A stretch of DNA of 64,000 bases from Candidatus Magasanikiibacteriota bacterium (lineage in GTDB: Bacteria > Patescibacteriota > Patescibacteriia > Magasanikbacterales > GWA2-37-8): positions 405,992-469,991 of the forward strand of contig JAGOQR010000001.1 in assembly GCA_017991415.1 (NCBI GenBank), given 5' to 3'. Shown one piece after another: positions 55,325 to 64,000 of this stretch. Under the pieces are notes generated by a model. It was not told where the DNA came from, searched no databases, and saw only the letters and a list, made by a program, of their open reading frames with translations. Within the stretch, counting starts at the first letter, position 1. Each line of letters opens with the position of its first letter. The translations under genes and the position numbers were made by a program.

Positions 55325-57067
55325 TTATTTTAATCCTTTTTCTATTTGACCCACTTCTTTATTAATGAACTTTTCAGCCGCATTGAGCTGGTTTTTGAGC
55401 TGAGACAAAATTTTAGCCTCTTCTTTTGTTAGCTCTCTTTTTAACCGTACCCTTTCTAGGGTTGAAACTTGTTTACGAGTACTTTCTCGTAACTCATCAA
55501 AGGCCGTATGCACATTTTTTTCTACGACCTCCACCTCTGTCCTGACTTTATTTTTTAACATTCTAAACTTGTGCCAAATATAAAGAACTAGTACTAGTAA
55601 CAAAATAACCAAGCCTAACAAAGCAATAACGAGGGTCGCGTACCCTATTACCAAAGAACCTATTCTAAACAGTGCTCTTTGTGTGCTCGTAATAATAATT
55701 TTTTCACTCGGATTACTCTTTGCTCCTTTTTCATTTTGCGCTCGAGCCCAAACGGAATATTCTCCTTCTGCCAATCGTTTTTCAAAGATAAATTTAAAAT
55801 TTCCATTTTCGTCCGACTTCACAGACTGAGATACGGCTTCAGCGCCATCTTTTTGAAGATAAAAAGTAATAGTAACATCAGGGTAACTGTTACCTAATAC
55901 AACTAAATTCTGACCAACAAACAGCTCTTGGGGATACTCTACAAGATTAGGAGAATCTATTGGATTTACGGTAAGCTCAAGTGAAGAAGTAAGATAGTTA
56001 CCAGCTTTATCGATAGCTTTGGCAACAACCGTATGCATACCTGGATCCAAAGGTTCTGTTCTAAAAATATGACCCCCTTCATCAAACCAAATCGTAGGCA
56101 ACCCATTGTCTATTACAATTTCGTATTTACCTATTTCCGAACCGCCATCCCGAGCTTTCATATACAGCTGCGCAACAGGGTCAAGAGAGTTTATTGGCTC
56201 TGACAAAGACATGTCAAAAAAATCTGGCTTTTGCGTATCTATCTGAAATTGATAGTGCGTAACTGGACCCCAACCAGAAGAGTTTCTTACACGAATATGA
56301 AAATACCAGCTTCCCTCTTCTACATCTGAATACGTGTACGAACTCATAACCCCGTCAGATTTAGTTCCAGGGTTAGTGTTGGGGTTATGGTCTCCCAAAA
56401 TACTTACCCCCGTAGTGCCTGGTGGTAAAATCCAGGAAAATTTTGGGTCATTACCTGCACACCAGCCGTCTGGTGGCGGACAATTTATTGAGCTAACTTT
56501 AGGAGCATTTGGAATAGTGTTTACTTCTGGCGGTGATACCACATCGTCATTTATAGATCCTGGATCTGTAAGAACAAAATTAGCCGATCCTAACCCTTTT
56601 AAAATATTAGTGCCATTTCCATCGTTGGCCAAAACCGAACCAGAAGACAATCTAATTGTTGCTTGACCTGCCGCTTTAGCCTTTAGCGTGACAGTGATTA
56701 TTTTTCCTGCCGAACCAGTGTACCCAGGATTTAAGACAACACCTTCAAAGTTAACACTGCCCGCACTAAAAGAAGGCTCCTGCGCCCATAAAGAAAAAAT
56801 TGACCCAGATTTTGAAACAGACACCACCTCCAATTTATCAGTAGGAATATCAAGCTCTCCCGATGCAGCGTTCATAGACTGGTCTGAAGCAGAAACAAAA
56901 ATTGATATAGAAAAATTTTTACCAACCTGCTTGGTGCCAGAATCTGGCGAAAAATAAAGAGTAGCTGCTCGCGTATGTGATCCAATAAAAAAAAGTACAA
57001 AAAAAGACAAAAAATATATTGTCTTTTTTACAAATCCTAAAATTATTTTTTTATTTTTCTCTTCCAT
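55325..57067 (-). CDS. cohesin-like-domain surface protein with a C-terminal TM anchor and coiled-coil tail
   Basis: ATG at 57067 preceded by GGAGG; signal peptide; ...SGELDIPTDKLEVVSV...GKIITVTLKAKAAGQATIRL beta-sandwich (cohesin-like, inference); TM IGYATLVIALLGLVILLLVLVLYIW. Confidence 0.45.
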   Translation of the reverse strand: MEEKNKKIILGFVKKTIYFLSFFVLFFIGSHTRAATLYFSPDSGTKQVGKNFSISIFVSASDQSMNAASGELDIPTDKLEVVSVSKSGSIFSLWAQEPSFSAGSVNFEGVVLNPGYTGSAGKIITVTLKAKAAGQATIRLSSGSVLANDGNGTNILKGLGSANFVLTDPGSINDDVVSPPEVNTIPNAPKVSSINCPPPDGWCAGNDPKFSWILPPGTTGVSILGDHNPNTNPGTKSDGVMSSYTYSDVEEGSWYFHIRVRNSSGWGPVTHYQFQIDTQKPDFFDMSLSEPINSLDPVAQLYMKARDGGSEIGKYEIVIDNGLPTIWFDEGGHIFRTEPLDPGMHTVVAKAIDKAGNYLTSSLELTVNPIDSPNLVEYPQELFVGQNLVVLGNSYPDVTITFYLQKDGAEAVSQSVKSDENGNFKFIFEKRLAEGEYSVWARAQNEKGAKSNPSEKIIITSTQRALFRIGSLVIGYATLVIALLGLVILLLVLVLYIWHKFRMLKNKVRTEVEVVEKNVHTAFDELRESTRKQVSTLERVRLKRELTKEEAKILSQLKNQLNAAEKFINKEVGQIEKGLK

Positions 57068-62800: not shown

Positions 62801-64000
62801 ATATTTCCACAAACTATCAACCCGCCAGCACCCGTCTGTAAAGCTTGATCGGCCCCATTACAATTAGCTGTGGCACCCAAATTTACATCTGCAGCAAAGG
62901 TACTTGTTCCAAAAACTTGCAACGAACCAGAAGCACTCACACTACCAGTAGAATCAACAAAGAATAGGCCCTCTAAATTACTTGTAGATGTAGCAATGAA
63001 TAACCCGTCTGCACGAAGACTAGAGGTAGTTGTTCCATCGGTAACTGTAACCGCTGTAGAAAAAACTGAACTTGCCGTACCACCACCGTCTGTTAAACAA
63101 GTAAATTTACCAGTGGTTGCGTTATAGTTAACAGTCTGAGATTCAGCACTACAATCAGTAAAATCGGCTTGGAAGAAGCCACCTGTAATTGTGGATGTAC
63201 GGAAAGTAGAACTGGCAGAAACATATAAATTGGTCGATGTCGCACTAACACCAAACATTTTGGAAAAGTTCAAACTTGTAATTGTTGAACTACTAATAGT
63301 TGTAGATGTTAGAACAATGGATCCGTTGGCAAATACTTCCAAAGAACTACTAGAAACTTTGGATCCAACTCTAAATACAGATGAGGTAGAACCTGTGGAA
63401 GATGCAAATACTGATAATGCTCCTTGAGACATAATTCCGCCAGCGCCTACTACCAATGAAGTACCAGCATACACACTTCCCTGAATAAATATATCATTTC
63501 TAACCTGTAACTGACCTAAATCTGCGCTATGCGCTACCAAACTAGTTACTTCCGTACCAGAAATATCTACTATAGACATAGTAGCATTACCGCTGTTTGC
63601 CACATATGCATAACGACCAGACACAGCTATTGCCGCAGGAGAACTGCCTATTGTTGTATTTGAGATCATGATAGGTCTTGTGGAGCTGGCTACATCTACG
63701 ATAGAAACAGTTCCTCCTTCATTGGTTACATATGCATAACGACCGGATACAAATACATTTGACGGACCAGAGCCAACTGTTGTACTGGACATTTTAACAG
63801 GGGTAGCTGGATCTGTAATATCAATAATAGAAATACTATCTTCGGCATAGTTGGCTGTATAAACACGGTTGCCAGATACATATACGCTTTCTGGCTGATT
63901 ACCAACATCTACAGTAGCGATATTTGCTGGCGAATAAGGGTTGGAAATATCCAAAACATGCATGTTGTTTTCACCGTTATTTATCACATAGGCATAGCGG
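59872..64000 (-). CDS. giant surface protein (partial, >1370 aa): YVTN beta-propeller repeats, Gly-rich region, Pro/Glu-rich C-terminal stalk
   Basis: N-terminal part (near the window end) has ~40-aa repeats ...VYVSGNRVYTANYAEDSISIIDI... / ...YAYVTNEGGTVSIVDV...; a GGGGGGG tract; C-terminal PEAPAAIEPQEESVPEP repeats. The ORF runs off the window. Confidence 0.6.
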   Translation of the reverse strand, partial: RYAYVINNGENNMHVLDISNPYSPANIATVDVGNQPESVYVSGNRVYTANYAEDSISIIDITDPATPVKMSSTTVGSGPSNVFVSGRYAYVTNEGGTVSIVDVASSTRPIMISNTTIGSSPAAIAVSGRYAYVANSGNATMSIVDISGTEVTSLVAHSADLGQLQVRNDIFIQGSVYAGTSLVVGAGGIMSQGALSVFASSTGSTSSVFRVGSKVSSSSLEVFANGSIVLTSTTISSSTITSLNFSKMFGVSATSTNLYVSASSTFRTSTITGGFFQADFTDCSAESQTVNYNATTGKFTCLTDGGGTASSVFSTAVTVTDGTTTSSLRADGLFIATSTSNLEGLFFVDSTGSVSASGSLQVFGTSTFAADVNLGATANCNGADQALQTGAGGLIVCGNIIATSGGAAGGVNTSTANYFAFYHTTTSVTGTSLMAMVNGSISFTSTTSFNTTTISSSTITHANITTLTVGSCIGCGGGVDSFDIFVSSSAGSGTWTKPAGIDFAQVIVTGGGGGGGAAAGAGADTTSEHAGGGGGGGGTAIKLFDGISLGSTASFTIGAGGAGATSVGLGSIGNTSTFGGFMTSSPGLPGRGQANGNACTVAADGGSGGSGGAATGGDINIPGGEGANGICAAELAQGGRGGASYWGPGSVGAQDVANGAVVGPNGTNWGSGGGGNREEDSSTATPAAAGNGAVGAVVVTSYVASGGDLAEWYETKTDVVPGDIVSVGVDMLEYNSFNLGLEKTSILEKAKPGSSIVGIVSTMPFEVMGGDLLGASTNAKPIALAGRVPVNVSDENGLVKAGDSLAISSIPGVAMRAIKSGRIIGTALQDATCETGQVCKVLVLVSSAYFNGMAMQRILEDKGLDMSVIPEGFDLSRIILTKMIADKESFVASSTTSEIFTDRVMAGLEVITPQVIAQRLIADTIESFSGEGLGLSLADGELFSIFGVTTTSSTISSASSTPVITFDSLGNGFFAGSLTANSITANEIIGLNILTNKLSMLADAVSELNDASSTPSYLSIAGMEVGSLQVSSTATFLSGLMAIGSSTFAGDVSISGNLQLLKLSVVDIESPLISSITSSLGILVEGLSSVSSTIADLSTRVSANELLLSSLTATSTATSSATALDMSVFTQGSGLQFEYAVLFKAGLQTDVIGSVSGTTTMMSDTIFFGRPYLNSDSGGYAVVASGTREVVITFDREYINKPVVQVTMSFEDVTSSIEITTTTIVGTTTITYTTTTIVQDLEFTQAQADAVFSADIRYLVSRVTAKGFTIMLNKPAPFDVRFDWLALAIKNPKLFIQNPSSPNADEPEAPAAIEPQEESVPEPVIIETSTPESEPLAPTITPETEEVVEPPSVELAPESSAPEPSSSTTEIIPSP

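Follow-up and report, generated by a model that had tools for sequence, protein, structure and literature searches.

A conserved gene cluster of Parcubacteria encoding single-cohesin membrane proteins and their predicted dockerin partner

We describe a cluster of five co-directional genes in a 64,000-nucleotide (nt) stretch of DNA from Candidatus Magasanikiibacteriota bacterium (GenBank assembly GCA_017991415.1, contig JAGOQR010000001.1, positions 405,992 to 469,991 of the forward strand; this whole stretch is called the window below). The cluster encodes two membrane-anchored proteins with one cohesin domain each, B and A, and a secreted protein, C, that ends in a dockerin. Together with the small gene D, these genes probably form a non-enzymatic unit in which a predicted, calcium-dependent contact between cohesin and dockerin would hold C on the membrane. 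The module contains no enzymes and is conserved across Parcubacteria, and therefore it most likely builds a cell-surface structure. [quoted passage not shown]

The genes, named E, D, C, B and A in the order of transcription, occupy 55325..64000, all on the minus strand, as do all features of the cluster given below. Gene E, which encodes a giant surface protein of more than 1375 amino acids (aa), spans 59872..64000 with its 5′ end beyond the window, and is followed by D (59330..59731), C (57987..59297), B (57043..57954) and A (55325..57067), of 133, 436, 303 and 580 aa; gene calls on another assembly with an identical C protein returned the same four lengths. An initial annotation of this DNA had given the features at the right positions, and open reading frame (ORF) and domain analysis confirmed them there, on the minus strand. 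It had also described B and A as upstream neighbours of the dockerin gene and the giant gene as the one that follows, which reverses the order of transcription, since E lies upstream of C and both B and A lie downstream; gene D, between E and C, had been missed.

The C-terminal dockerin of C (57990..58163) matches the Pfam family Dockerin_1 (PF00404) with 25.8 bits over residues 379–431, above the gathering score of 22.9, and 30 of 35 members of the C family match it as well, with a best E-value of 4.4e-9. A scan of the full set of 401 six-frame ORFs of the window gave a single occurrence of the dockerin loop pattern D.[ND].[DN]G.[IVL]...D. Of the two calcium loops, the first, DLNKDGKVNLID, is canonical, with D, N, D, N and D at ligand positions 1, 3, 5, 9 and 12, and these ligands (D1, N3, D5, N/D9, D12) are kept in at least 119 of 121 C-family sequences. 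The second loop, RLNGDGKVDLVD, has Arg in place of Asp at ligand position 1 and retains positions 3, 5, 9 and 12, which are kept in 107–121 of the 121 sequences. The initial description of a canonical two-repeat dockerin was thus slightly overstated for the second loop, although the dockerin keeps its calcium-ligand residues in full in loop 1 and at four of five positions in loop 2. The dockerin is built of two tandem segments, in each of which a 12-residue EF-hand-like loop leads into a helix. The D12 residues of the two loops lie 34 positions apart, and the two dockerin helices, VNLIDFSIAAYWY and VDLVDMSIIAYYW, are near-symmetric. In the AlphaFold model of C, whose predicted local distance difference test (pLDDT) score is 78, an FN3 domain, a glycine-rich linker and two immunoglobulin-like (Ig-like) domains are followed by a three-helix C-terminal module, with the predicted dockerin helices at residues 390–399, 406–415 and 424–435 (pLDDT 83–92).

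Many dockerins of the C family carry an additional feature around the first loop. In 78 of 120 relatives of C (P0098–P0217), a Cys at loop-1 position 4 or 6 is accompanied by a second Cys no more than 14 residues upstream, typically in the arrangement K-C-P ... D-L-N-x-D-C. This pairing of a loop Cys with a nearby upstream Cys suggests a disulfide staple. The protein of the window belongs to the Cys-free minority of the family.

Proteins B and A both have hydrophobic N-termini with cleavage sites of the A-x-A type, and one C-terminal transmembrane segment each. In B, an N-terminal signal peptide is followed by the cohesin domain (residues 28–165, 57460..57873), an Ig-like domain (57151..57414), a transmembrane helix (57064..57123) and a basic C-terminal tail of 6 aa. 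The AlphaFold model of B is of high confidence (mean pLDDT 92.5), and in a Foldseek search of the PDB its matches at ranks 1 to 21 were all cohesins, with E-values from 8e-9 to 2e-5 and target-normalised TM-scores of 0.56–0.80 (at least 0.64 in all but one), while the matches beyond rank 21 were poor fits to multi-domain Ig proteins. On this model, B has a cohesin fold, a nine-stranded β-sandwich that can be superposed on solved cohesins. Profile searches point the same way: the three best PDB matches of the B-family profile are ScaB cohesins of Ruminococcus flavefaciens (E-values 0.0017–0.068), and 12 of 43 B-family members match Pfam Cohesin (best E-value 2e-7), with no other family recurring.

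Protein A likewise starts with a signal peptide, followed by the cohesin domain (residues ~35–175, 56543..56965), three further FN3/Ig-like domains including a Big_13 domain, a transmembrane segment (55574..55669) and a conserved, helical and putatively cytoplasmic tail of ~80 aa (residues 499–580, 55328..55573). Its N-terminal domain is shared with B (BLASTP 2e-11) and matches the B-family profile at 6e-36, and through this link to the profile it is assigned as a cohesin too. The tail, 73–82 aa long, keeps the sequence HxAFDxLRE..LEK..KRELTxEE across lineages and matched no known family. Structure and profile evidence thus bear out the original reading of both proteins as carrying signal peptides, cohesin-like domains and C-terminal membrane anchors. 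The Ig-like domain of B, searched as a profile (profile positions ~160–265), also finds giant proteins as long as 4,269 aa (P0218, P0219, P0231, P0236), with as many as 31 tandem copies of the domain.

Across 167 cohesin domains, the residues N58/A59 (strand 3), S81, W86 and P90 (strand 5), F101, G103 and G108 (strand 6) and G129 are conserved, together with an L-x-N-D-G-x-G-T loop after strand 8. The conserved residues are the same in all three size classes of cohesin protein and lie on a single sheet. In type I complexes, the cohesin binds the dockerin through the sheet of strands 8-3-6-5, and by analogy the conserved positions would mark the surface that contacts the dockerin of C.

The association of the two module families is conserved far beyond the window. 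Counted as clusters at 90% identity, relatives of C number more than 2,196, and a scan of species-representative genomes gave at least 509 stretches matching C; across Magasanik-, Uhr-, Taylor- and Kaiserbacteria, the relatives are 55–60% identical. All informatively named records among the matches listed belong to lineages of Parcubacteria/Paceibacteria. Many third-party metagenome-assembled genome (MAG) records with the cluster (L005–L084) bear the title 'uncultured Gammaproteobacteria' or 'uncultured Candidatus Saccharibacteria'. Since their C proteins are 50–77% identical to those of named Parcubacteria, such titles are probably erroneous or mere placeholders. The B-family profile matched 3,758 cluster representatives at 50% identity, with E-values up to 1e-30. 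No description of the operon was found in the searchable literature on dockerins and cohesins in CPR, Parcubacteria, Patescibacteria and related groups.

We examined synteny in 84 loci, of which 75 had enough downstream sequence and 71, after removal of redundancy, had at least 2.5 kb upstream. The dockerin gene is followed on its own strand by cohesin ORFs in every one of the 75 loci, and these mostly overlap C or start within tens of bases of it. There are one to five cohesin genes per locus and usually two (two in 43 loci, three in 17, one in 1 and five in 1). Each of the 173 cohesin ORFs with a full-length cohesin match holds exactly one cohesin, and a hydrophobic segment follows the cohesin in 158 of 170 complete ORFs. 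These ORFs fall into three size classes, with a tail after the helix of ~5 aa in B-like and 73–82 aa in A-like proteins. No second dockerin was found in the window or the 84 loci besides that of C. The proposal that a membrane-anchored scaffold would bind a dockerin-bearing cargo gains support from this strict, phylum-wide gene adjacency, although the word 'scaffold' fits loosely, with a single cohesin per protein. Individual loci show further variation. One MAG (CAYZGX01) carries two complete E-D-C-cohesin-cohesin clusters on different contigs (L012, L013), and in another locus (L083) the five cohesin ORFs do not abut C but start ~4 kb downstream of it.

Within the window, the genes are packed in an operon-like manner, with gaps of 32 nt between D and C and again between C and B, and of 140 nt between E and D; the start of A overlaps the end of B by 25 nt, and its ATG is preceded by AGGAGG. 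A promoter-like site with TTTACT, an 18-nt spacer and TATAAT with a TG extension, reading TGGTATAAT, lies inside the gap between E and D (59829..59858), and a terminator-like 15-bp hairpin followed by a T-run (55282..55318) lies directly 3′ of the stop codon of A; both were identified as consensus matches only. The next gene after A encodes a SpoIID domain, and the extended −10 element TGGTATAAT precedes both this gene and gene D (55260..55293; 59829..59858). With a promoter-like site before D, a hairpin and T-run after A and a separate TGGTATAAT for the SpoIID gene, D-C-B-A looks like a single transcription unit as judged by these consensus signals, and the hairpin is its likely terminator. 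The GTG listed as start of the SpoIID ORF (55293) falls within the hairpin, which makes the ATG at 55260 the probable true start, in agreement with a 347-aa call in another assembly.

Catalytic and carbohydrate-binding domains are absent from proteins A–E in Pfam and NCBIfam searches, and no glycoside hydrolase was found among the 20 largest other ORFs of the window, which are housekeeping genes or have no Pfam match. This agrees with the non-cellulolytic context suggested at the outset. NCBIfam holds no family for A–D, and PHROGs returned nothing for C. A structural search with the model of C found generic FN3/Ig tandems only, and no enzyme.

The remainder of C, which also carries a Pfam Big_6 match, consists of a signal peptide (residues 1–23), a conserved N-terminal module to which no confident fold could be assigned (residues 24–80, 59058..59228), the FN3 domain (58788..59048) and two Ig-like domains of the Big_6 type (58188..58718), with the glycine-rich linker between the FN3 and Ig-like domains. 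The N-terminal module has a pLDDT below 50 as a monomer. Its sequence is strongly conserved, with three motifs of the S-x-x-F type followed by GFLYFP, and a profile search of the window and all loci found it solely in C. The module may need an oligomer or a partner in order to fold.

From these data we propose the following arrangement. B and A would be exported and kept in the cytoplasmic membrane by their C-terminal helices, each with its one cohesin at the N-terminal end of a stalk that consists of one Ig-like domain in B and three in A. C would be secreted without an anchor of its own, and its C-terminal dockerin would bind the cohesins of B and A in a calcium-dependent manner. Because it is the C-terminal end of C that would be bound to the membrane cohesins, its FN3/Ig stalk and conserved N-terminal module are predicted to face outward. 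In the Parcubacteria envelope, the module would serve as a conserved adaptor layer. At loci that encode D and a giant protein of the E type upstream, it would probably cooperate with or hold variable adhesin-like fibres through the C-terminal domain that these giants share. For A, the conserved cytoplasmic tail suggests a link to an intracellular partner.

Several points weigh against this model. The score of A against Pfam Cohesin (PF00963) is 18.4 bits (E-value 0.0025), below the gathering score of 24.1, B has no Pfam Cohesin match, and single-sequence searches of the PDB with A and B found no cohesin; the suggested Pfam check thus succeeded for the dockerin of C and fell short for the cohesins, whose assignment comes from the structural and family-level profile evidence described above. 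At position 1 of the second dockerin loop, where C has Arg, Asp is found in just 25 of 121 relatives. The dockerin survey covered the window and the 84 loci, and other cargo proteins may lie elsewhere in the genome. About a third of the loci lack E and D. Finally, the conservation of C, 55–60% across lineages, fits a housekeeping role in the envelope better than a host-specific adhesin.

The last point bears on the biological purpose of the tether, surface assembly or host-cell attachment, which is less certain than the tether itself. The giant adhesin-like neighbours favour attachment or surface assembly, while the strong conservation of C and the wall-related neighbours favour a housekeeping role in the envelope. 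At its most far-reaching, the attachment idea makes the module the conserved base of a Parcubacteria-wide attachment organelle. Variable giant, probably trimeric, fibres of the E type would be joined to C via their shared C-terminal lectin-like domain and D, the dockerin of C would sit in the membrane cohesins, the two to three cohesin genes per dockerin gene would reflect a multi-point anchor, the conserved N-terminal module of C, not folding as a monomer, would do so only on oligomerisation or fibre binding, and the tail of A would relay contact or load to the cytoplasm. We offer this elaboration tentatively and regard it as unlikely in this full form.

An alternative of some weight, to which we still give only a minor share of probability, accepts the cohesin–dockerin contact as real and assigns it to a housekeeping envelope scaffold, such as a tether between membrane and wall or surface layer (S-layer), or a factor in wall remodelling or division, in place of an attachment device. 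The conservation of C is unusually high for a surface protein of the CPR, the cytoplasmic tail of A is conserved too, and wall-related genes are frequent neighbours, SpoIID in the window and Beta-lactamase2 and SLT-like genes at other loci. These neighbours vary between loci, however, the SpoIID gene has its own promoter-like site after the terminator-like hairpin, and no peptidoglycan- or S-layer-binding domain was detected in A–D with Pfam and NCBIfam.

It is improbable, in our view, that the dockerin and the cohesin-fold domains are not mutual partners at all, the dockerin being a calcium module for another ligand (glycan, wall or protein), the cohesin folds generic β-sandwich spacers, and their adjacency the mark of a shared pathway. 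The sub-threshold Pfam scores of the cohesins and the degenerate second calcium loop would be in keeping with this, and many non-cellulosomal dockerins have no identified cohesin partner. Yet the adjacency of dockerin and cohesin genes extends over deep lineages (75 of 75 loci), the dockerin hardly varies within the C family, the three classes of cohesin protein keep the same residues on one sheet, and the fold matches of B are specific to cohesins and do not extend to other β-sandwiches. A true minimal cellulosome-like system for enzyme display, or a phage-derived tail-fibre cassette, is very improbable and largely refuted: the cluster does use the cohesin and dockerin families of cellulosomes, and E does match phage tail-fibre families, but there is no glycoside hydrolase or carbohydrate-binding module (CBM) among A–E and the 20 largest other ORFs of the window and no second dockerin in the window or the 84 loci, each cohesin protein has one cohesin and is anchored by a transmembrane helix, no full-length relative of C was found in the 2.9 million viral contigs of IMG/VR (FN3 matches only), and the flanking genes are housekeeping genes, with an even base composition across the window.

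The tether model can be compared with several known systems. It shares with cellulosomes (CipA, ScaB) the same two module families, and the solved cohesins of cellulosomes are the best structural and profile matches. It differs from them in lacking a multi-cohesin scaffoldin, a CBM and enzymes, on which grounds a classical cellulosome is ruled out, and in an inverted stoichiometry of few cohesins and one dockerin. Closer parallels are OlpA and OlpC of Clostridium (Acetivibrio) thermocellum, which have S-layer-homology (SLH) anchors and enzyme partners. As in OlpA and OlpC, one cohesin per surface-held protein would capture a single dockerin protein, and the C. thermocellum cohesin of PDB entry 4dh2, from a type I pair, matches the model of B with a target-normalised TM-score of 0.72–0.74. 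In the present cluster, by contrast, the anchor is a C-terminal transmembrane helix, the predicted partner is non-catalytic, and two to five cohesin genes accompany one dockerin gene. No matches to SLH or LPXTG anchoring were found in A–E, and in the cohesin proteins a C-terminal hydrophobic helix takes their place.

Use outside plant cell-wall degradation is a feature that the cluster would share with the cohesin–dockerin pairs of Archaeoglobus fulgidus and Clostridium perfringens. The toxin-complex modules of C. perfringens sit on enzymes or toxins, and to our knowledge neither system is a conserved operon of membrane-anchored single cohesins with an Ig/FN3 stalk protein. The cohesin of the C. 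perfringens GH33 sialidase (PDB 2vo8) matches the model of B with a target-normalised TM-score of 0.80. In A. fulgidus, the cohesin and dockerin are a working pair in a non-cellulolytic organism (PMC12484212). Within the CPR, the saccharibacterium Southlakia epibionticum has a dockerin-domain envelope protein, SEML1_0315, that is essential by transposon sequencing (Wang et al. 2023, PMC10633639). Like C, SEML1_0315 is a surface protein with Ig/FN3-type domains and a dockerin and has no enzyme domain; unlike C (436 aa), it is 927 aa long, with a hydrolase gene and a tRNA gene as neighbours in place of cohesin genes. We rejected orthology with C on these grounds of length and neighbours, and not on a sequence comparison. 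The cluster may nevertheless be connected to the unexplained essentiality of this dockerin protein in cultivated Saccharibacteria. More broadly, it would extend the cohesin–dockerin principle to a membrane-anchored, enzyme-free and phylum-wide structural role, and the complex could serve as a marker when uncultured cells are studied by proteomics or tomography.

The two upstream genes, E and D, are probably accessory parts, a variable adhesin fibre and its helper. The reading frame of E has no in-frame stop before base 64000. Its product comprises N-terminal YVTN/LVIVD β-propeller repeats (31.5 bits against TIGR02276, cut-off 27.85, and 44.3 bits against Pfam LVIVD, cut-off 20.2), a fibre-like Ser/Thr-rich region, a glycine-rich domain (~61897..62529; Pfam Gly_rich_2, 33.2 bits), a conserved C-terminal domain with a weak H-lectin match (~60070..60747) and a Pro/Glu-rich tail (59875..60069). 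The repeats, glycine-rich domain and tail had all been recognised initially. E matches the phage tail-fibre families phrog_863 (9e-21) and phrog_6202 (3e-7); a single-sequence search of PDB sequences gave nothing informative. No transmembrane segment, cohesin or dockerin was found in the part of E inside the window, its 5′ end lying beyond it. The giant protein, suggested at first to take part in the assembly, is tied to the cohesin–dockerin module by synteny only.

At other loci, the upstream giant proteins are 560–3,169 aa long with variable N-terminal parts, and E shares with them only its central (~690–835) and C-terminal (~1085–1365) parts. The C-terminal domain of E is common to the upstream giants in 42 of 74 raw loci and in 39 of 71 after removal of duplicates. 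In these 71 loci, D occurs together with this domain in 39 and alone in 8, neither is present in 24, and the E domain without D occurs in none. D itself has a membrane anchor at its N-terminus, followed by a ~75-aa domain that is very conserved (consensus VGKLIVLPEGEEPTxATVxDPEKLKDQPFFAxAKxGDKVLIY) and a Pro/Thr-rich tail, and there are one to three D copies per locus. The D-family profile found no relative in the PDB or Pfam, and PHROGs gave a weak match to phrog_28859, a family of unknown function (E-value 0.0016).

Elsewhere in the window, a 23S rRNA gene on the minus strand (26636..29861) is 3,226 nt long, compared with a model of 2,925 positions, and contains a group I intron match at 27564..27773 with 51.3 bits (gathering score 50); a 5S gene adjoins it (region 26421..29861). 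The window has no 16S gene, and the rRNA genes may therefore be unlinked, an arrangement frequently reported in the CPR. In a related genome (L001), the cohesin genes are closely followed by type IV pilus genes (PilM and PilB-like ATPases). The window itself encodes a protein of 596 aa (45710..47500, minus strand), unusually large for a pilin, which combines the N-terminal methylation motif of type IV pilins with a CarboxypepD_reg-like domain.

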